A DNA stretch of 64,000 bases from an uncultured bacterium (GCA_963768305.1 CAVYHE010000008.1:129576-193575); one strand, 5' to 3'. Numbered from the stretch's first letter, positions 1 to 8,366 are shown. A program made the numbers and translations. Notes: generated by a model from the sequence alone, not told the origin.

Positions 1-147
1 AAGATAGATCTTTTTATCGTTATAGCCCTTATCGCGGAATTCTTTCTCAAGTTCAGCTATAAAATACACTTTCTCTTCCCCCGAGAGCCCGTTAAAGGCG
101 TCAAAGAATGCTCGTATTTTTTCCTCGATTTTTGGCGTGTTTATCAT
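1..147 (-). CDS. hypothetical protein, N-terminal 49 codons only (gene runs off the left edge)
   Basis: Open frame from ATG at 147-145 down to position 1 (MINTPKIEEKIRAFFDAFNGLSGEEKVYFIAELEKEF...). Too short in-window for the ORF track. TATAAA lies 6 nt upstream of the ATG. Confidence 0.3.
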   Translation of the reverse strand, partial: MINTPKIEEKIRAFFDAFNGLSGEEKVYFIAELEKEFRDKGYNDKKIYL

Positions 148-231
148 AAAAAGTTTATATAGTTAAACTGTATTTTAACATATAACGGTAAAAGACAACA
201 CTTGTTTTTGCTTCTCCGAAAGCGTGATACG

Positions 232-240
232 TGCTATAAT
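232..240 (+). promoter_or_regulatory. extended -10 promoter element TGcTATAAT, 10 nt upstream of the DUF1015 ATG
   Basis: TG at 232-233 and TATAAT at 235-240, with the ATG at 251. No Shine-Dalgarno in between. Confidence 0.5.
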
Positions 241-250
241 AGCAAAACTT

Positions 251-1603
251 ATGGCTAAGATATTTCCCTTCAACGGGCTCATATATAATAAGGAAAAGGT
301 CGGGAAATTCTCAAAAGTGCTCATTCCTCCTTATGACGTCATATCAAAAGAAGATCAGGAAAAATATTACAAGTCCCACCCGTATAACTGCATAAGGCTG
401 ACGCTCGGAAAAGAATTCCCGGAGGACACCGAATATAATAATAAGTACTCCCGCGCCAGCAGCTTTTTCAATGCGTGGATTAAGAACGATATCCTGAAAA
501 AGGATGATGAAGAATCTGTCTATGCTTACGAGCAAAGGTTCTCTTATAAAGGGAAAAAATACGTCCGTCTGGGATTTATAAGCCTTTTCAAGCTGGAAGA
601 CATGGATACCGGAAAGATCTTCCCGCATGAGAACACTCTTCCAAAGCCGAAGGCGGACAGGCTGTCATTGATGGAAGCGACCGCGGCCAACTTTGAACCC
701 ATTTTCGCATTGTACGTTGATGAAGATGAAAAGATCCCCGGATTGATAAAAAAGAAGATAAAAAGAAAGCCGCTCGTTGAAGCAAGGGACATGTTCGGCA
801 TCCATAACAAGCTCTGGAAGATATCCGCAAAGGCCGTTATCAATAAAATAATGAAGGAAATGGCTGCCAAACAGGTCTTTATCGCCGACGGACACCACAG
901 GTATGAATCTTCCCTCAAATACAGGAATGAAATGAGGACAAAATCGCAAAAATCCATCGGGGACGAGCCTTACAATTTTATAATGACCTATTTTACGAAC
1001 ACCTTTGACAAAGGGCTGATAATTATGCCGATACACAGGCTCATTTTGAACCTGAACCTGAAACAAAAGATAAATCTGGAGAACCGGCTTCTGGACTGTT
1101 TCGAAATAAAGGATATAAAATTCTCCAAAAAGACCGAAGCTGCCGCGAGGAAAAAACTCCTGAAAGCCATGTCAAAGGCCGGCGAAGACGATCATTTTTT
1201 CGGGATGTACGTTCACGGCGAGAACAAATATTCTCTTTTGAAGCTGAAATATGAAAAGCTGGTAGATAAATACACCGGCGCCGACAAGCTGAAGGAATGG
1301 AAAAAACTGGACATAACCATCCTCCATTCGCTCATCATAAAAGATATTTTATGCATAACCGAACAGGACATAGAGGGGGAGAACGCGGTCAAATACGTTC
1401 ATAATGATGATCAGGCGTTCGATCTGGTAAAGGAAGGGAAATATCAGATAGCTTTTTTCCTGAACCCCACAAAGATAGAACAGGTCACCGCACTGGCTTC
1501 CAAATACGAAAAAATGCCGCAGAAGTCCACGTTCTTCTATCCGAAGCTGCTGACCGGGCTGGTAATGTACAAGATGATGCCGCCGGAAAAGTATTCGTTC
1601 TAA
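251..1603 (+). CDS. DUF1015 domain-containing protein
   Basis: The N-terminus MAKIFPFNGLIYN and the internal IADGHHRYES motif are typical of the DUF1015 family. I chose the ATG at 251 rather than the track start at 224. Confidence 0.8.
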   Translation: MAKIFPFNGLIYNKEKVGKFSKVLIPPYDVISKEDQEKYYKSHPYNCIRLTLGKEFPEDTEYNNKYSRASSFFNAWIKNDILKKDDEESVYAYEQRFSYKGKKYVRLGFISLFKLEDMDTGKIFPHENTLPKPKADRLSLMEATAANFEPIFALYVDEDEKIPGLIKKKIKRKPLVEARDMFGIHNKLWKISAKAVINKIMKEMAAKQVFIADGHHRYESSLKYRNEMRTKSQKSIGDEPYNFIMTYFTNTFDKGLIIMPIHRLILNLNLKQKINLENRLLDCFEIKDIKFSKKTEAAARKKLLKAMSKAGEDDHFFGMYVHGENKYSLLKLKYEKLVDKYTGADKLKEWKKLDITILHSLIIKDILCITEQDIEGENAVKYVHNDDQAFDLVKEGKYQIAFFLNPTKIEQVTALASKYEKMPQKSTFFYPKLLTGLVMYKMMPPEKYSF

Positions 1604-1620
1604 GGATCCGGAGAAAGAAG

Positions 1621-2208
1621 CTAGAATTGCTTCCCTATATTAAGGTCCCATTCCGCGATTGTTCCGCCGTCCTTGATATTGTTGATGGCGAATTTCGGGG
1701 TTAAAAAATAGTCCCAGATCATGAAATTCGGAGCGAACGCAATATAAGTGGCAGTTGCATGAGTATCATCATCGAAATATTGTTTTTTACCGTAACTATC
1801 CGTATAATTTATCGCATTTGTGATATACAAAGACGCCTACTCCCAAGTGGAACGTAAAATAGAGGTCTTTGGAAAAGATATATCTTAGCACGAGGCCGTA
1901 TTTTAAAATATTCAGATTCTGCTCAAGCTTGAAATTCGTGATCTGCTGCTCCACTTCTCCGCCCAAGCTGAAAATCCCCGTCGGGTAAAACATTTCTCCT
2001 CCTATGCTCACTCCAGTCCCCAGAGCCGCTCACAAGCCCCAGATGGAAAGACGAATCAAAAGGGAGATTGCCGCCCGAGAAAGTGGTGGCGGAAGCAAAG
2101 TTAAAAGGAAAAAATAAAAACGCAAAAATATATACGAAAATTAAAAATTTTGAATTTTGAATTGCAATTTTGCCTTTTGACTTTTACTTTTTGCCTTTGT
2201 TTTTTCAT
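1621..2208 (-). pseudogene. outer-membrane beta-barrel-like protein, frame broken at least twice
   Basis: An ATG at 2208 gives a K/Q-rich n-region. A signal-peptide-like IFAFLFFPFNFASATTFS follows in a second frame. Alternating beta-strand-like sequence continues in ORFs 1796-2011 and 1621-1830, ending ...DLNIGKQF with a C-terminal Phe as in OMPs. Confidence 0.4.
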
Positions 2209-3102
2209 GATTCGAACTTTTTGCCTGTCAGCTTCTCATAAGCTTCCAGATATTTTTCCCTGGTCTTGCTGACGACTTCATCGGGCAGCGGCGGCGCCGG
2301 CGGGTTCTTGTCCCATTTTATCGAGAGCAAATAATCCCTGACGAACTGTTTATCATAACTTTTTTGCGGCCCGCCTGCTTTGTAAATGTCCATCGGCCAG
2401 AATCGGGAGGAATCAGGCGTGAGCATCTCATCGATCAATATGATCTTCCCGCCGATCTCGCCGAATTCGAATTTCGTGTCCGCGATGATTATGCCTTTTG
2501 ATTCAGCGTGCTTGCACGCGGCCTTATATACCTCCAGTGTCTTGGTCTTCAAAATATCAGCTGTTTTCTCGCCGACTATCTTTCTCATGTCGGATTCCGT
2601 GATGTTTATGTCGTGGCCCGACGCTTCTTTCGTGGACGGCGTGAATATCGGCTGCGGCAGCTTGGATGATTCCTTGAGCCCGGCAGGAAGTTTTATGCCT
2701 GAAACAGAACCTTTCTGCTGATATTCCGCCCAGGCGGAGCCGGAAAGATATCCCCGCACGACGCATTCTATCTCGATAAGTTTCGCTTTCCTGCCGATAA
2801 CGGACCTTTTATCGAGCATTTCGGAATATTTCTGAAGCTCTTTCGGATATTTTTTCACGTCGGCAGTGACAACGTGGTTATCGATGATGTTCTTCGTGTG
2901 ATTGAACCAGAAAAGCGAGAGCATGTTCAATATTTTCCCTTTGTCGGGGATGGGGGTCGGGATAACGGAATCGAAAGCGGAGATGCGGTCGGTTGCAACT
3001 ATCAGAAGTTTGTCGCCAAGGTCGAAAACATCGCGCACTTTCCCTTTTTTGAACAGAGGGATGCCGGGAAGTTTTACATTGAGTGACCGCTTCGGAATTC
3101 AT
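2205..3102 (-). CDS. purC: phosphoribosylaminoimidazole-succinocarboxamide synthase (SAICAR synthetase)
   Basis: LIVATDRISAFD and overall PurC-like sequence in ORF 2205-3038. The conserved N-terminus KLPGIPLFKKGKVRDVF continues upstream in frame without a start codon. The ATG at 3102 is one base out of frame, so a 1-nt indel in the T4/A4 run at 3072-3075 is likely. Confidence 0.9.
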
Positions 3103-3113
3103 TTCAAAGAGAT

Positions 3114-3119
3114 ATTATA
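3114..3119 (-). promoter_or_regulatory. -10 box TATAAT, 11 nt upstream of the purC ATG (3102)
   Basis: The reverse complement of attata at 3114-3119 is TATAAT. No SD lies between it and the ATG. Confidence 0.4.
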
Positions 3120-3167
3120 GGATTTTTAAATGCAATTCAAGTAATACGTAAATTAATGCCGCAAGAT

Positions 3168-3800
3168 CTATCCTTTCGCTTTTATCGCGAACAGAGTATC
3201 GTCAACCTTAAAAATACTTTTAAAGCGATTTGAACTATAAATATTATTTAAAATGACGATCCTTGGCCCCATAAAACCGATATCATGGATAGCTATTGTG
3301 CCGCCGATCGATAAAAATGGCTCCCATAGGTCAAAATCTTTTTTAACATGTTCATATTCATGCCTTCCGTCTATCCACAGCATCCTTATTTTAGAGCTCC
3401 ATTTTTCAGCGGCTTTAAATGAAGTCGTCGGCAAAAGCTTAACATTCTCATTTAAGCCCGCATTTTTTATATTCCTTGAAAATATTTTCCTGCTGCCCGC
3501 CGATCTGAACAGAAACCTCGGCCTATCGGGAGTGCTGGTCCAGAAGTTCCTGTAAGGATCTATCGTGAACACTTTGCCGGCTCCGCGGTCCTTCACGCCC
3601 TGAGCCAGGCAAACGGTCGCCCTTCCTCGATAAGTACCTATTTCCACGATATCTCCCTTGCCCGCGCCGTATCTTGCGGCTAAATACAGAAAGCTCGCCT
3701 CTCTAGGCAAAAGAAAGCCGTCTATATTGGAAATGAGCCCGCTGATCTTCAGGGTTTCATGATCTGAGGGGATTATTTTATTGTTGAATATGCGCTTCAT
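3168..3800 (-). CDS. class I SAM-dependent methyltransferase
   Basis: Contains the glycine-rich SAM-binding stretch IVEIGTYRGRATVCLAQG. Small O-methyltransferase-like fold. Last gene of the rSAM operon, 26 nt after the maturase. Confidence 0.7.
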   Translation of the reverse strand: MKRIFNNKIIPSDHETLKISGLISNIDGFLLPREASFLYLAARYGAGKGDIVEIGTYRGRATVCLAQGVKDRGAGKVFTIDPYRNFWTSTPDRPRFLFRSAGSRKIFSRNIKNAGLNENVKLLPTTSFKAAEKWSSKIRMLWIDGRHEYEHVKKDFDLWEPFLSIGGTIAIHDIGFMGPRIVILNNIYSSNRFKSIFKVDDTLFAIKAKG

Positions 3801-3826
3801 TTTTGTATGATAACAAAACTGAACAT

Positions 3827-5218
3827 TTATTCAAAGAAGATATGTTTTTTTTCATCCAAATATTTCTCAATGGCTTTGACCGCCCCGGTTTTCTTCATAT
3901 ACAACACCGCGAAGAAATACGCCGCTTCTTTTATGAGGAATTGTTTCAATTCGCACAATAAAGGATCCGGTTTCAAGGATCCTCTTTGATAGGTTTCAAA
4001 TAAACACTCTCCTCCGCAGAGCTTTTTCGCCCAGCATTTTCCGCATTTTTCCAGAAAACCGTTCTTCTCCCCGGCTTTTTCAAGATAACCTGGCTTGAAT
4101 CCTTTATGTACGCTGCCCAAAGCGGTCTCCTTGGAACCGCCGAAAGAAGGACAAAGGAATATGGTTCCCTTATGGTCCACAAAGAATGACAGGTGTCCTG
4201 CCTCGCACCGCCTCATTTGTCCGGAATGCTTGAAAACCCTGAGCAAATATCTGCCAAAAAGATCTCCAGGATTTAGGATGGCGAACAGATAGTCGTAATT
4301 ATCCTTATAAATGATGGCTCCGAGAAGGATGTCCGTGAGATCGTGATATTCCTTTTTGACCTTTGCCAGCCTTGATCTTGTGATCTTATATCTCTTATCC
4401 ATCCCGCGGTAAGGCTTCATTATTACTTCCTTAAAACCTGAATGATACAGATATTCCAACCGTGGAACTAAAAAGGGACTATCGAATGTGTAAGTCACAT
4501 TCACGTTATCAAGCAACTTAATGGCATTTTCACGCCGTAAATTGGCCAGGCATTCACGCACGGCATAACTTGACCCTTTGCCCTGTTTATCATGCCTTAT
4601 CCGGTCGTTGATGATCGGAGGGCCGTCATAACTCAATGAGAAGCGCAAAATTCGATGGCATTTTCTATATAGATCTTTTATTTTGCGTATGACTTTTCTG
4701 TTGAACAAAGTGCAGTTGGATGTGAACCGCAGATAAATTCTCTTCCGCTTTTTATGGGTCAAGACATAGTTAGCAACCTGTTCTATCAGTTTGAAATTAA
4801 GCAGCGGCTCTCCTGTGCCGGTAAAGTCTATGTAAAGCTCTTTTACGTCGATAAATCGCTTTTTATAATGGTCAAAAAATAGATCGATGGCTTTTTTTGC
4901 GGTCTTGAACGACATCCTGCCGGGATGCAAATGCGTTCTTGCGGCAAAACAATAGCTGCAGGCAAGGTTGCAGCCGCTATAATTCTCAAGATTTATCGTT
5001 GCCACAAGATTTTTAGGCCCGGCTTTCGCGTTTGCCGGCTCAATGAGGGGAGTTTTGTTCTTTAAAATATCGGCTTTAACCGCGGATAACGAATCCGGCC
5101 CTTGAGGAATGAAATAGAAAGCGAGGTTATCCTGGTCAAAAAGGAATTGAAGGCCGCGATGTTTTATTTGATCAAGCATAATAAAATAACATGGCCAACC
5201 TCTGATCCAGCTGGCCAT
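3827..5218 (-). CDS. radical SAM/SPASM-domain maturase (peptide/protein-modifying type)
   Basis: CNLACSYC is CX3CX2C at Cys83/87/90. The C-terminal SPASM signature is CEAGHLSFFVDHKGTIFLC (C-x12-G-x4-C), then CGKCWAKKLCGGEC (CX2CX5CX3C), then a later Cys. A ~70-aa N-terminal extension precedes the rSAM core. Confidence 0.85.
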   Translation of the reverse strand: MASWIRGWPCYFIMLDQIKHRGLQFLFDQDNLAFYFIPQGPDSLSAVKADILKNKTPLIEPANAKAGPKNLVATINLENYSGCNLACSYCFAARTHLHPGRMSFKTAKKAIDLFFDHYKKRFIDVKELYIDFTGTGEPLLNFKLIEQVANYVLTHKKRKRIYLRFTSNCTLFNRKVIRKIKDLYRKCHRILRFSLSYDGPPIINDRIRHDKQGKGSSYAVRECLANLRRENAIKLLDNVNVTYTFDSPFLVPRLEYLYHSGFKEVIMKPYRGMDKRYKITRSRLAKVKKEYHDLTDILLGAIIYKDNYDYLFAILNPGDLFGRYLLRVFKHSGQMRRCEAGHLSFFVDHKGTIFLCPSFGGSKETALGSVHKGFKPGYLEKAGEKNGFLEKCGKCWAKKLCGGECLFETYQRGSLKPDPLLCELKQFLIKEAAYFFAVLYMKKTGAVKAIEKYLDEKKHIFFE

Positions 5219-5233
5219 GTTTTAATAGATCTA

Positions 5234-5686
5234 CTAGCAATAAATTCTGGAAATCCCTTTTCCTTCTGTTGAGCCAAGAATTACAAATGAATGATTTGGA
5301 CTTTGATCGAGCTGTCTCTTGACTATTTTAAGATCTCTTCCGCTTTCCGGATCAATAATATTGTAATTCCCTCTTCCTGCATGAGTTTCGTCCCTATATT
5401 GGATCAATGCCACAGCTTTTTTCCCAATAGCATCTCTTGAACCATCCTTTAGGGTGTATCCGCAAAGAATAGAAGAAATATAGTCGCTCAAATTAATACG
5501 GGATTTCTCCGAGAGCTTGCCTAATATTGCCTTCTGTTCAGGAGCGGACATATTCACGAAATCATATGCCTGATTCCCTATATAACCATCTCCCTTTTCT
5601 GCTTTAATGAATGCTGCTACGAATTTATCCGCCTTTGTCGAAATTTTAGTCTTCGTAGTGTCAGAAGATACTTTAGACATTTTCAT
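5234..5686 (-). CDS. paralog 1 of putative rSAM substrate family (150 aa, ends ...ILGSTEGKGISRIYC)
   Basis: GGAGG lies 9 nt upstream of the ATG. Paralogous to the next two ORFs, with an invariant C-terminal Cys. Confidence 0.7.
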   Translation of the reverse strand: MKMSKVSSDTTKTKISTKADKFVAAFIKAEKGDGYIGNQAYDFVNMSAPEQKAILGKLSEKSRINLSDYISSILCGYTLKDGSRDAIGKKAVALIQYRDETHAGRGNYNIIDPESGRDLKIVKRQLDQSPNHSFVILGSTEGKGISRIYC

Positions 5687-5727
5687 TTTATATCACCTCC
5701 CGGTAAGTTTTATTGTTTCCGGGCTTC

Positions 5728-6135
5728 TTAGCAGAATATTCGCGGGGATTTTTCCCCATAATATGATCCCAATAAAACATAGGAAAATCCCTCTGTTTGA
5801 TGCGTATAATATTCATTTTTCTTGCCTTGATGCCGATATACATCCTCCACTGTAAAATTCTTGAATTGAGGCTCTTCTCTATATTGGATCAATTGTTTTG
5901 CCTTGTCAGAAAGAGGCGTTTCCCTTAAGCGCGCCACCCGGGCCAAAGCATCGCTCAAAGCAAAACGATCGCAATCCGGATCGTTTAATACCGCCTTTTG
6001 CGCGGCATCGGACAACTTCAAAAAATCTTCAGCAAATTGATATGGGTTTATCCTGGTCGTTCGATTTTGATCGAACTGAATGTATGATTTTACGAATTTC
6101 TTTGCATCTGAAGCGGGGCTTACATCACCTGGCAT
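5728..6135 (-). CDS. paralog 2 of putative rSAM substrate family (135 aa, ends ...LLGSYYGEKSPRIFC)
   Basis: I chose the ATG at 6135 because the AGGAGG 8 nt upstream overlaps the GTG at 6144 used by the track. Shares SDKAKQLIxYxEEPQFKxFT with paralog 3. Confidence 0.7.
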   Translation of the reverse strand: MPGDVSPASDAKKFVKSYIQFDQNRTTRINPYQFAEDFLKLSDAAQKAVLNDPDCDRFALSDALARVARLRETPLSDKAKQLIQYREEPQFKNFTVEDVYRHQGKKNEYYTHQTEGFSYVLLGSYYGEKSPRIFC

Positions 6136-6175
6136 ATTGTTCACCTCCTGTTAAATTTTATTATTTCAAGGCTCC

Positions 6176-6571
6176 TTAGCAGAATACCCGCAAAACAGGC
6201 CCACCGTCTGTCCCCGATCCTAATATGATATGAGACATCCCGTATGTATGATATGGAAAATGCACAACCTTGCCATTTACCACTTTTTCCTGTTCTATTG
6301 TAAATCCTTTGAATTGAGGTTCTTCTTTATATTTGATCAATTGCTTCGCTTTGTCAGAACTGGGGCCCGTACCGCTATAGCAAAGCCAGCTTAATGAACT
6401 ACTCAACACAATGCGGGATTCTAGTGGAAGTTTGTCTAATACTGTTAATTGAACAACACTGGGTAAATTCACAAACGCTCTAGCATCGTCAACGCTCGGT
6501 TCACTATGGATCTTGTGCATCTTTACAAATTTCTGTGCTTCTGAGTTGATTTGTACGGGTGTAAGTGCCAT
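6176..6571 (-). CDS. paralog 3 of putative rSAM substrate family (131 aa, ends ...ILGSGTDGGPVLRVFC)
   Basis: GGGAGG lies 8 nt upstream of the ATG. This is the first gene after the promoter at 6644-6616. Confidence 0.7.
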   Translation of the reverse strand: MALTPVQINSEAQKFVKMHKIHSEPSVDDARAFVNLPSVVQLTVLDKLPLESRIVLSSSLSWLCYSGTGPSSDKAKQLIKYKEEPQFKGFTIEQEKVVNGKVVHFPYHTYGMSHIILGSGTDGGPVLRVFC

Positions 6572-6615
6572 TTTGTTCGCCTCCCGGTGGGTTTCATTGT
6601 TTCAAGAAACGCGTA

Positions 6616-6644
6616 ATTCTACCATATTTCAAGGCTTTTGTCAA
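6616..6644 (-). promoter_or_regulatory. sigma70-type promoter TTGACA-17 nt-TAGAAT for the paralog/rSAM operon
   Basis: On the minus strand, TTGACA is at 6644-6639, the 17-nt spacer at 6638-6622, and TAGAAT at 6621-6616. This is ~45 nt upstream of the ATG at 6571. Confidence 0.6.
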
Positions 6645-6662
6645 TTGCTTGCCGCCAAAGTC

Positions 6663-6679
6663 AAGCGCATCAAGCGCTT
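6663..6679 (-). terminator. short GC hairpin downstream of the GH8 gene (weak terminator candidate)
   Basis: AAGCGC-5 nt loop-GCGCTT. The T-rich tract is better on the plus strand (tcttttgg) than on the minus strand (gactttgg). Confidence 0.25.
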
Positions 6680-6741
6680 TCTTTTGGGGCTGTTAAAATG
6701 TTTTGGAGGATACAGTTGTCGCCGAAGCATTATGTCTGGGC

Positions 6742-8013
6742 CTATTTGCCGCCTTCCCCGTTCATGAAGAACAAAGAGAACCATATCCAGTTCTGGCCGT
6801 AATAATCACCGGGATCATTGCCCCAATATCCTTCTGTATGATATTCGCTTTGGATCTTGCTATATAATGCCTTTGCTCCTTCTTTATATCCTGACGCCCA
6901 AAAATAAGTCATGTAAACGCTAAGGGTTTGGAGAGTTTCGCTTCTCCAGTGCACTCTGCCGTCAATATTGTAGCCGGAGAATATCGTACCGTTCTTATTC
7001 AGCTCGCTCATGAAAAACTGGCACGGCGAGAGATCGGGATTAGCGCTTTTGCAGTCGCAGTAAGAATCCGCCGCCGCATCCGACGGGTCCAATTTATGCT
7101 GCAGCGCCATGAAGAAATGCGTGCGGAAAGCGTCGCCGCCCTGAAAATAGTCGTTCGGAGACCAGTTATGATCGTGGACTTTTTCCTGCGCGTCCACTGT
7201 TATCCAGTCCGGAACAAGATTTACCGATCCTTTTACGGCCTCATTTGATTCATTGTGCATTACTGCGGTTTCGGCTTTCCTTATGACCTCATAAGCCGGA
7301 GCGACCATGGATCTCCAGTCGTGATCGGTATCCGCTTCCGCGAACAGTTTTTCGTAATATGAAGGGCGAAAATAGGAAACGTTTATCCCGTTCGTCGGAA
7401 CTTTCGTTTTAGGATCTTGCGTATACATCTGGACATCGCTTCCGAGAAGGATCCTTTTCCCGTTGATGATCTTTGTTTCCTTGTTCCAGATATCATCAAG
7501 TAATGCGAGAGCTTCTTCTTTATAATTGATAACTCCGCCGCTTCCCCATTTCTTGTCCGCCCATAGCAATGCAGCTGCGATATCCTGATCGGCATCGGTC
7601 GCAGGATTAAGATGATCGCATGACAGCACGCCGCCTTTTTTACCGCCAACTGTCGGAAGGAATTGCCATGCAAAAAGATTATCTTTCTTTGAAGGTTCAA
7701 CCGGCTGCCATTTTTTTGAGTCGGCATTGTAGATGCCGGTGATATTCTTTCTCTGCATGTTCACTGAAGTCCAAGACCATATCTTGTCGAACGTGACTTT
7801 GTCGCCCATTAAAGCTGAGGCGCTCAATCTGTATGAAACTGCTTCGGAGAATGTGACTTTTTCAGTCGTGTCTCCGTCTTTATCAAGGTCGCTCTTATCT
7901 GGATCAGCTAAAGGCCTGCCGTCCTGAGCGATCATATTCCTGTTGTAATGATCGTAAGATCGCTTTAATATCGCGCTTATTGCCGGATCTTTTTGGACTC
8001 CAGTAACACCCAC
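6742..8013 (-). CDS. glycoside hydrolase family 8 (endoglucanase/chitosanase-type)
   Basis: ATDADQDIAAALLWADKKW fits the GH8 signature as I recall it (A-[ST]-D-[AG]-D-x2-[IM]-A-x-[SA]-[LIVM]-[LIVMG]-x-A-x3-[FW]). I chose the GTG at 8013, 8 nt after AAGGAGGG. No signal peptide is visible. Confidence 0.75.
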   Translation of the reverse strand: MGVTGVQKDPAISAILKRSYDHYNRNMIAQDGRPLADPDKSDLDKDGDTTEKVTFSEAVSYRLSASALMGDKVTFDKIWSWTSVNMQRKNITGIYNADSKKWQPVEPSKKDNLFAWQFLPTVGGKKGGVLSCDHLNPATDADQDIAAALLWADKKWGSGGVINYKEEALALLDDIWNKETKIINGKRILLGSDVQMYTQDPKTKVPTNGINVSYFRPSYYEKLFAEADTDHDWRSMVAPAYEVIRKAETAVMHNESNEAVKGSVNLVPDWITVDAQEKVHDHNWSPNDYFQGGDAFRTHFFMALQHKLDPSDAAADSYCDCKSANPDLSPCQFFMSELNKNGTIFSGYNIDGRVHWRSETLQTLSVYMTYFWASGYKEGAKALYSKIQSEYHTEGYWGNDPGDYYGQNWIWFSLFFMNGEGGK

Positions 8014-8063
8014 CGCTATTATCCCTCCTTGAATTTTGCCGTTCTCTACCCTTCTATATATAT

Positions 8064-8092
8064 ATATCGTCAAATTTGAGATGAAATTTCAC
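8064..8092 (-). promoter_or_regulatory. GTGAAAT-N16-CGATAT motif copy 1 (alternative-sigma-like promoter) facing the GH8 gene
   Basis: On the minus strand, GTGAAAT is at 8092-8086, the 16-nt spacer at 8085-8070, and CGATAT at 8069-8064. Confidence 0.5.
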
Positions 8093-8131: not shown

Positions 8132-8366
8132 ATGAAATTGAAATGCAGCATATGCGAAAATGAGATCGACATTAAAGAGGGCACAAAGCCCGGGACCAGG
8201 ATAACCTGCCCGAACTGCTTCGCGCAGCTCGCGGTTATATAAGCACAAGGGCAGGCTGATCATCGGCTGCGCCATGTGCAAAGAATCCGTCTTTGATCCG
8301 ACAAATTGCGAAAGATGCGAACGAAGGCGTGAACTGAAGGAACTGATAACGGAAGGGAGGCTGTAA
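8132..8366 (+). pseudogene. double zinc-ribbon protein (four CxxC pairs), frame broken near 8240
   Basis: MKLKCSICENEIDIKEGTKPGTRITCPNCFAQLAV, then a stop. The +1 frame continues YKHKGRLIIGCAMCKESVFDPTNCERCERRRELKELITEGRL and stops at 8364-8366. Confidence 0.5.

Follow-up and report, generated by a model that had tools for sequence, protein, structure and literature searches.

We analyzed a 64,000-nucleotide stretch of DNA from an uncultured bacterium (GCA_963768305.1 CAVYHE010000008.1:129576-193575), referred to throughout as the window, and find that an operon on its minus strand, at positions 3168-6644, carries an extremely rare two-gene module. The conserved unit of this module, as judged by sequence comparison, is a small protein that ends in a free cysteine together with the radical S-adenosylmethionine (SAM)/SPASM enzyme encoded directly downstream, and the two very probably form a dedicated enzyme–substrate pair. 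The module looks like an undescribed, self-contained two-component system for protein modification. The reaction that we favor, with a probability of roughly 45%, is one in which the enzyme would join the C-terminal Cys of the small protein through one thioether to an upstream residue of the same chain.

Linkage of the small protein and the enzyme

A word-indexed search with the first small protein of the window (P1) against 5.8 billion protein clusters returned only P1 itself and one relative, and a profile of the family retrieved nine clusters from the same collection. An exhaustive hidden Markov model search of 1.84 billion representative proteins gave 14 clusters (50% identity) at E ≤ 0.001. 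For the enzyme there are only five orthologous clusters, at 48–54% identity, the next relatives being at most 33% identical, and a locus search with the enzyme alignment recovered a single orthologous locus across 185,579 species-representative genomes, to which JGI metagenomes added three.

An orthologous radical SAM gene lies directly downstream of the small-protein gene in 10 of the 10 independent loci that include downstream DNA (L001, L003, L006, L009, L010, L011, L016, L019, L020 and L022). A small protein lacking a radical SAM neighbor, the case that an earlier note on this DNA had set against its own proposal of a dedicated maturase, was therefore never seen. Reciprocally, in each of the six orthologous radical SAM clusters a family member stands immediately upstream, and none was found at the loci of the nearest non-orthologous radical SAM enzymes. 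The presence of the enzyme at all 10 loci and this reciprocal absence together establish a strict two-way linkage. Across the same loci, no protease or peptidase, exporter or further enzyme is conserved around the gene pair. The small-protein gene is present in three tandem copies in the window only and as a single copy at all other loci.

We found no description of this family of small proteins and radical SAM enzymes in Pfam, NCBIfam (release of June 2026), PADLOC, PHROGs or the literature searched. All named orthologues come from metagenome-assembled genomes of Candidatus Margulisiibacteriota, and these names, the sole basis for assigning a host, point to Margulisbacteria as the probable source of the window.

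Operon organization and expression signals

Five open reading frames (ORFs) run head to tail through the operon in the order given by the earlier note: three small paralogues with a terminal Cys (131, 135 and 150 aa), the radical SAM/SPASM enzyme and a methyltransferase. The features, with positions counted from the first letter of the window, are:

6644-6616, minus strand: sigma-70-type promoter, TTGACA-17-(TG)TAGAAT, 11/12 matches, ~45 nt upstream of the P1 start codon
6176-6571, minus strand: P1, putative substrate paralogue 1, 131 aa, tail ...LRVFC-stop, ribosome-binding site (RBS) GGGAGG
5728-6135, minus strand: P2, paralogue, 135 aa, tail ...PRIFC-stop, RBS AGGAGG 8 nt before ATG 6135
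5234-5686, minus strand: P3, paralogue, 150 aa, tail ...SRIYC-stop, RBS GGGAGG
5178-5221, minus strand: terminator- or attenuator-like hairpin with a 13-bp stem and an 8-nt loop, then the U-rich tail UUAUUUUAUUAU
3827-5179, minus strand: radical SAM/SPASM enzyme, 450 aa from the probable ATG 5179 (463 aa for the longest ORF, from 5218)
5009-5179, minus strand: N-terminal extension of the enzyme, confidently predicted by AlphaFold2 as three beta strands and one helix, then a disordered Lys-rich linker
4949-4972, minus strand: CX3CX2C motif (CNLACSYC) for the radical SAM [4Fe-4S] cluster, conserved in orthologues
3953-4207, minus strand: SPASM domain with seven conserved Cys, TIGR04085 at 41.8 bits versus a cut-off of 27
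3168-3800, minus strand: methyltransferase of class I SAM type, 210 aa, 26 nt downstream of the enzyme gene

The promoter proposed earlier is real: TTGACA-17-TAGAAT at 6644-6616, with its TG extension, is the top promoter-like site between 2900 and 7000. Each of the small genes is preceded by a strong RBS, and the enzyme gene has none. The start of P2 is the ATG behind AGGAGG; a GTG three codons upstream, which would give 138 aa, falls within the Shine–Dalgarno spacer.

The hairpin proper (5221-5188) directly follows the P3 stop codon and separates P3 from the enzyme gene. It folds with a predicted free energy of −24.2 kcal/mol (z −3.44), which none of 200 shuffled sequences equaled, and at three independent loci (L001, L011 and L020) a strong hairpin with a U-tract stands at the corresponding position. 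None of this type was detected between the paralogues. Because the hairpin covers ATG 5218 and the first residue of orthologous enzymes aligns with Met14 of the window enzyme (MLDQIKHRGLQF... versus MIHHIKHHGFPF... and MTFKKIDHRGLSF...), the most likely start of the enzyme is ATG 5179 rather than 5218, giving a protein of 450 aa; the gap before the gene, first given as 15 nt, is then probably 54 nt. We infer that the hairpin acts as a leaky terminator, leaving the substrate abundant and the enzyme scarce.

Affinities of the radical SAM/SPASM enzyme

Much new enzyme chemistry comes from radical SAM/SPASM maturases. The window enzyme belongs to the radical SAM superfamily and carries a SPASM domain by every measure applied: PF04055 (Radical_SAM, 37 bits versus a cut-off of 29.5, with Fer4_12 also matched), TIGR04085, the sequence motifs and fold matches to CteB and anSME (template-modeling scores of 0.65–0.77). 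CNLACSYC and the full SPASM signature were read correctly in the earlier note, in that the window enzyme has, and its orthologues conserve, C-x12-G-x4-C, CX2CX5CX3C and the final Cys; in the numbering of the 463-aa ORF, the SPASM cysteines are C338, C356, C392, C395, C401, C405 and C422.

The enzyme does not fall firmly in any known family, so that the case which the earlier note had set against its proposal, a firm place in a family with a different known substrate encoded elsewhere, did not arise, and every NCBIfam equivalog cut-off is missed widely. The best-scoring model is that of the PapB ranthipeptide maturase (NF047865; 146.8 bits versus a cut-off of 340), followed by the nif11-type radical SAM maturase (118 bits), the SCIFF maturase (TIGR03974; 115.7 bits versus 425) and, fourth, QhpD (TIGR03906; 114.3 bits versus 453). 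The anSME model reaches 53.3 bits versus a cut-off of 349 (TIGR03942), and models of families that form cyclophanes or C–C bonds reach 59 (DynA), 57 (YhhB), 42 (FxsB) and 33 bits (XyeB). MftC and PqqE are not among the best 25 matches, all of which score at least 31 bits; with PapB, SCIFF and QhpD in the lead and CteB as the best structural match, the analogy to MftC drawn in the earlier note is weak. A PADLOC match of the enzyme to pVip (33 bits) was considered as a sign of a defence system and rejected, as it spans the generic radical SAM core only.

By sequence, the best match in the PDB is CteB (5WGG; E 1e-20, ~21–22% identity). An AlphaFold2 model of the enzyme (predicted local distance difference test score (pLDDT) 91.6, predicted template-modeling score (pTM) 0.91) likewise returned CteB first in Foldseek (E 1e-24, template-modeling (TM) score 0.76), then anSME (TM 0.65) and ChlB. 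The seven SPASM cysteines align one-to-one with the ligands of the two auxiliary clusters of CteB (PMC10177961), C338, C356 and C405 falling at auxiliary cluster 1 (AC1) and C392, C395, C401 and C422 at auxiliary cluster 2. In PapB and Tte1186, the cross-linking cysteine or selenocysteine of the substrate binds the open iron site of AC1 directly (PMC10177961). The seven-Cys SPASM domain with a three-Cys AC1 is the arrangement that accepts a thiol or selenol there, and by analogy it lends indirect support to a thioether-forming reaction in the window. In everything that could be tested, the enzyme appears to group with the thioether formers CteB, PapB and QhpD, at ~21–22% identity.

These affinities also bear on a different fate of the C terminus, in which the terminal residue or residues would be processed by oxidative decarboxylation to an aminovinyl-thiol or thioenol, or by anSME-like oxidation to a formylglycine or thioaldehyde. 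What is formed could either remain on the protein or be released as an [FY]-Cys small molecule, following the logic of mycofactocin and 3-thiaglutamate. An invariant terminal Cys with a nearly always aromatic neighbor does resemble scaffold peptides whose last residues become the product, and the conserved scaffold domain with a variable middle of the protein fits this picture, as does the rank of anSME as second-best structural match (TM 0.65). However, the best 25 NCBIfam matches include neither MftC nor PqqE, anSME scores 53 bits against 147 for PapB, and the enzyme has the seven-Cys pattern of thioether formers. The two auxiliary clusters of anSME are both fully Cys-ligated. Release of a small molecule would moreover need unlinked genes, since no peptidase or tailoring enzyme is conserved in the 10 loci. 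We regard such processing, with both fates of the product counted together, as rather unlikely.

Conserved tail and predicted fold of the small proteins

The small ORFs were correctly recognized as paralogues with a common Cys-ending tail: P1, P2 and P3 (identical to P0001, P0078 and P0077, respectively) are true paralogues of 29–40% identity that share S-[FYH]-[VI]-[IL]-L-G-S-x7-9-R-[IV]-[FY]-C-stop. Every family member ends in Cys, as RVFC, RIFC, RIYC, RVYC, RIVC, MVVC or ...SRC/PRC. Only the terminal Cys and one Arg are invariant in an alignment of 17 members, and in most of these the two form R-x-x-C; the most divergent protein, P0085 (...MVVC), has no Arg at −3. The terminal Cys is the sole invariant Cys, most members containing one to three, and an aromatic residue nearly always stands just before it. 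Conservation in the tail is among the highest in the protein, and variation is greatest in the hairpin region.

The family went unrecognized in the earlier note, and it remains without a relative in our searches: scans of P1–P3 in Pfam, NCBIfam, PHROGs and PADLOC gave no family match, and the family profile found nothing credible in the PDB. An AlphaFold2 model of P1, built from an alignment of only 11 sequences, has a pLDDT of 90.6 and a pTM of 0.81. It consists of five helices (residues 5–78), a long beta hairpin (82–98 and 101–115), a loop and a C-terminal strand (128–130) made of the R-V-F that precedes the terminal Cys. Foldseek searches with this model returned nothing at E ≤ 0.001 from the PDB (best E 0.67) or from viral structures (best E 0.07). 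We read no signal peptide, double-Gly type motif or other recognizable cleavage motif in the small proteins.

Given the high-confidence fold, the conserved tail and the lack of a signal peptide or cleavage motif, the small protein looks more like a predicted folded protein of new fold that is modified as QhpC is by QhpD, and a disposable leader with a hypervariable core is the less fitting description. A more specific proposal is doubtful as a whole: that the small proteins are mature, folded intracellular proteins of new fold whose terminal Cys the enzyme makes into a protein-bound cross-link or cofactor, as in QhpC, or into a released [FY]-Cys small molecule. If a protein-bound group or a released small molecule proved to be the product, Margulisbacteria-type organisms would possess a previously unknown protein-derived functional group.

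The earlier note had seen in the operon the classic logic of peptides that ribosomes synthesize and that are modified post-translationally (RiPPs). Its core, a dedicated radical SAM/SPASM enzyme with co-encoded free-Cys substrates, is supported, but the 10 loci share no protease or exporter, and the substrate is predicted to be folded. Taken literally, that logic would make each small protein a leader of ~110 residues with a core of ~20 residues that is cyclized, methylated by the adjacent enzyme, cleaved and exported through unlinked genes. The NHLP and Nif11 families offer examples of long folded leaders, and the nif11-type radical SAM model is the second-best match of the enzyme; the tandem substrates, the terminator between substrate and enzyme genes and the adjacent methyltransferase of the window would also suit a secreted RiPP. 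At all other loci, however, there is a single substrate copy and no methyltransferase. Nor does the small protein itself resemble such a precursor, as it has neither a signal sequence nor a double-Gly type cleavage motif, its tail is the best-conserved part instead of a hypervariable core, and strand 128–130 is modeled at high confidence within the fold. With no conserved protease or transporter either, we consider a secreted RiPP improbable.

N-terminal extension of the enzyme

After correction of the start codon, the N-terminal extension measures about 57 aa from ATG 5179, less than the ~70 aa first estimated. It carries the motif HRGLxF[IL]FDxDxxxFY[FL][IV]P and resembles the beginning of a RiPP recognition element (RRE; beta-beta-beta-alpha...) from which two helices are missing. 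Of the RRE-like domain suggested earlier, only three strands and one helix are present, and the extension is not general: seven loci have the extension (the window, L001, L011, L016, L019, L022 and, in divergent form, L020), and four orthologous loci (L003, L006, L009 and L010) do not, the small gene there abutting or nearly abutting the enzyme start.

Enzymes with the extension are paired with substrates that have the long 'EPQ[FL]KG...' hairpin, and in the substrates of extension-less enzymes this segment is deleted or replaced. Such co-occurrence suggests that the beta elements of the extension and of the substrate hairpin dock on each other. It is a lead only, because possibly just one or two evolutionary events account for it.

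The four orthologous enzymes without the N-terminal module could need a separate recognition protein, and the small protein, predicted to be folded, might serve as such an accessory subunit for recognition or as a chaperone, in the manner of PqqD, with the true substrate encoded elsewhere. PqqD-type structures have been solved and are in the PDB, so that a match would be expected if the small protein had that fold, yet its model has no PDB match (best E 0.67). An accessory role would also leave the invariant final Cys and the three divergent tandem copies unexplained, and a lower level of enzyme than of small protein, as a terminator between their genes would give, is what one expects of a substrate and not of a stoichiometric partner. 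We judge this role highly improbable.

A proposed thioether at the C terminus

In the scheme that we favor, the substrate genes would be strongly transcribed from the single promoter and translated from their strong RBSs, and the leaky hairpin terminator and missing RBS would hold the enzyme at a low, catalytic level. The enzyme would dock the folded, cytoplasmic substrate, helped by the three-strand N-terminal module in the lineages that have it, and the thiolate of the terminal Cys would bind the open iron site of AC1. The 5'-deoxyadenosyl radical would then take a hydrogen atom from an upstream residue, and a single S–C thioether would form with a change of −2 Da, so that the C-terminal tail would be closed on itself or tied to the hairpin.

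With the Cys as the last residue, the donor can only have its acceptor on the upstream side, unlike in the substrates of PapB or QhpD; the N-x-x-C motifs modified by NxxcB provide a precedent for this topology (PMC9389541). Two candidate acceptors emerge from the alignment. The first is the near-invariant Arg at −3, which would give an R-x-x-C ring and is proposed because R-x-x-C is the spacing of the two invariant residues in most members. The second candidate is the conserved [ST]-[YFH]-[ILV]-P-L motif 16–18 residues upstream of the Cys, which precedes the loop leading to the final strand.

Several observations weigh against a thioether. Homology to CteB amounts to only ~21–22% identity and all family model scores lie far below their cut-offs, and SPASM enzymes of similar sequence catalyze very different reactions. 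Strict invariance of position is found for no acceptor residue: at −3, Arg is missing from the two '...SRC/PRC' members and from P0085, and the S-aromatic motif lies anywhere from 16 to 26 residues before the Cys. A transposed Asp...Cys motif was not cross-linked by PapB (PMC9413430), which makes a donor-last topology atypical for the CteB/PapB clade. In the crystal structure of CteB, finally, AC1 was bound by a peptide Cys other than the cross-linking one (PMC10177961), so cluster binding by the terminal Cys alone would not prove it to be the reacting residue.

The CteB structure also lends weight to the idea that the terminal Cys is an anchor only, either ligating the auxiliary cluster or positioning the tail, while another residue is modified through a C–C or C–O cross-link, epimerization or modification of Arg. 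Conserved aromatics at −1 and in the S-[YFH] motif would offer sites for such chemistry, and WprB reportedly makes a radical SAM cross-link at the C-gamma of Arg (PMC11851443). Families that form cyclophanes or C–C bonds nevertheless score far lower than thioether families (57 for YhhB, 42 for FxsB, 33 for XyeB and 59 for DynA), and, for the reacting group, an invariant Cys is the most straightforward choice. A mere anchoring function is, in our estimate, unlikely.

Were the thioether confirmed, it would extend thioether-forming SPASM chemistry to protein-sized substrates, add a topology with the donor at the C terminus and provide the first candidate post-translationally modified protein for a poorly known, uncultured phylum. 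Neither a donor-last thioether nor a new reaction at a terminal Cys has been seen in the characterized members of the CteB/PapB clade. The module offers a clean and extremely rare pairing of a radical SAM enzyme with a protein of ~130 aa that is predicted to be folded and whose free C-terminal Cys is its sole universally conserved reactive feature, and it is tractable, with only two genes needed and three natural substrate variants at hand.

Methyltransferase and neighboring genes

The methyltransferase belongs to Methyltransf_24 (PF13578, E 1e-25). The earlier note had assigned it a tailoring role, and a class I SAM enzyme is indeed adjacent to the radical SAM gene; tblastn, however, found no homologue in any other locus of the family, and we rejected the methyltransferase as a conserved tailoring component on this ground. 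It is probably a neighbor and not part of the conserved system, judging by these comparisons. Its closest solved chain, 6G7D (E 4e-16), is annotated only as 'Methyltransferase domain protein' and is, we believe, a sugar O-methyltransferase. The gene has its own weak promoter-like site (3834-3807, minus strand, TTGAAT-16-TATCAT with TG), and the stretch downstream of it, up to a 277-aa ORF (2205-3038) that may be purC, showed no terminator-like hairpin. The methyltransferase may belong with this ORF rather than with the radical SAM gene.

On the other side of the operon, a palindromic hairpin (AAGCGCATCAAGCGCTT; 6663-6679, plus strand) lies between the operon promoter and the stop codon of a glycoside hydrolase family 8 (GH8) gene. 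On the plus strand, which has no gene end here, it was scored as a terminator-like element; it may be the GH8 terminator in the other orientation or an operator site. The GH8 gene itself (6742-8073, minus strand; PF01270, E 7e-20, with a weak BcsZ-like match) sits between the small-protein operon and a small zinc-ribbon gene, and L016 has no such gene at this position, which points to an insertion or rearrangement beside the module.

The zinc-ribbon gene (8132-8363, plus strand; CxxC...CPNC), presumably LysW-like, has a +1 frameshift near 8235-8245 relative to an intact 77-aa homologue in L016 (118-351, minus strand) and is either a pseudogene or the product of an assembly error. In L016 this gene is divergent and directly beside the small-protein gene, which makes the window and L016 loci syntenic. 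The G+C content of positions 1-8000, which hold the module, is somewhat lower (0.415–0.45) than in most of the window (0.46–0.50).

Elsewhere in the family, none of the candidate partners considered (among them RCC1-repeat, 1056-aa, nucleotidyltransferase-like, HAD and MBL genes) recurs across loci or in the window. In one Margulisiibacteriota lineage (L003, also L004, L005 and L015), a 1056-aa protein gene abuts the small-protein gene (stop 7594, ATG 7595) and is preceded by a 455-aa RCC1-repeat gene (the L003 span being 2988-7594). The 1056-aa protein has a lipoprotein-like N terminus and no Pfam domain, and neither protein has a homologue in the window or the other loci. Genes that match the nucleotidyltransferase domain NTP_transf_2, some of them weakly, lie just upstream of the small gene in L006 (6453-7220) and L009 (3352-3969), on the same strand, and in L001 (16-342), on the opposite one; they have no counterpart in the window and their position may be a coincidence.

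Comparison with known systems

Orphan pairs of a radical SAM enzyme and a precursor are common, and to our knowledge almost all characterized radical SAM/SPASM maturases act on short, disordered peptides. Measured against the features of a strict RiPP cluster, the window has a precursor-like gene; the RRE is partial here and absent in four loci, and no protease or exporter is conserved in the 10 loci.

CteB/ScfB and PapB resemble the window enzyme in having a seven-Cys SPASM domain with a three-Cys AC1 and a Cys-containing substrate encoded directly upstream. Their substrates, however, are Cys-rich peptides of 40–50 aa, whereas those of the window are predicted to be folded, 130–150 aa long and provided with a single invariant, C-terminal Cys, and the N-terminal recognition domain is truncated to three strands and one helix or absent. 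Substrates of the PapB family carry C-X3-D/E, in which the Cys precedes its acidic acceptor; in the window the Cys is the last residue, and PapB did not tolerate an acceptor upstream of the donor, the very topology required here. A SCIFF maturase would be expected beside a six-Cys peptide, but the neighbors here match nothing in Pfam or NCBIfam and mostly contain one to three Cys.

The likeness to QhpD and QhpC lies in the placing of Cys thioethers in an intact, functional intracellular or periplasmic protein rather than in a secreted peptide. Neither the window nor the related loci contain dehydrogenase subunits, a QhpE-type protease, a QhpG flavoprotein or other qhp genes, and QhpC has several internal Cys-Asp/Glu pairs where the window substrates have a single terminal Cys. 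The streptococcal RaS-RiPP pair NxxcB/NxxcA, which forms a beta-thioether, shares the acceptor upstream of the Cys and the two-residue spacer, present here as R-x-x-C in most members. NxxcA differs in its Asn acceptor and short peptide, set against a candidate Arg in a predicted folded protein here, and the '...SRC/PRC' members and P0085 break the spacing. No NxxcB model is found among the NCBIfam matches listed, and the likeness is drawn from its published description.

MftC, too, is a radical SAM/SPASM enzyme that acts on the extreme C terminus of a co-encoded product with invariant last residues. MftA ends in Tyr and is four to five times shorter, whereas the window substrates end in Cys and are predicted to be folded, and no equivalents of MftB, MftD, MftE or MftF lie nearby. 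An anSME would call for a sulfatase with the motif C/S-x-P/A-x-R; none is encoded nearby, and the tail motif here is R-x-x-C.

Because the equivalog cut-offs are missed widely and the substrates lack the defining motifs, the module appears, by sequence, to work like the CteB/PapB/QhpD group without being a member of any of those families. What would set it apart is a protein-sized substrate with a predicted new fold, a single invariant Cys at the C terminus, a putative donor-last topology and a gene pair that travels with no protease or exporter genes.

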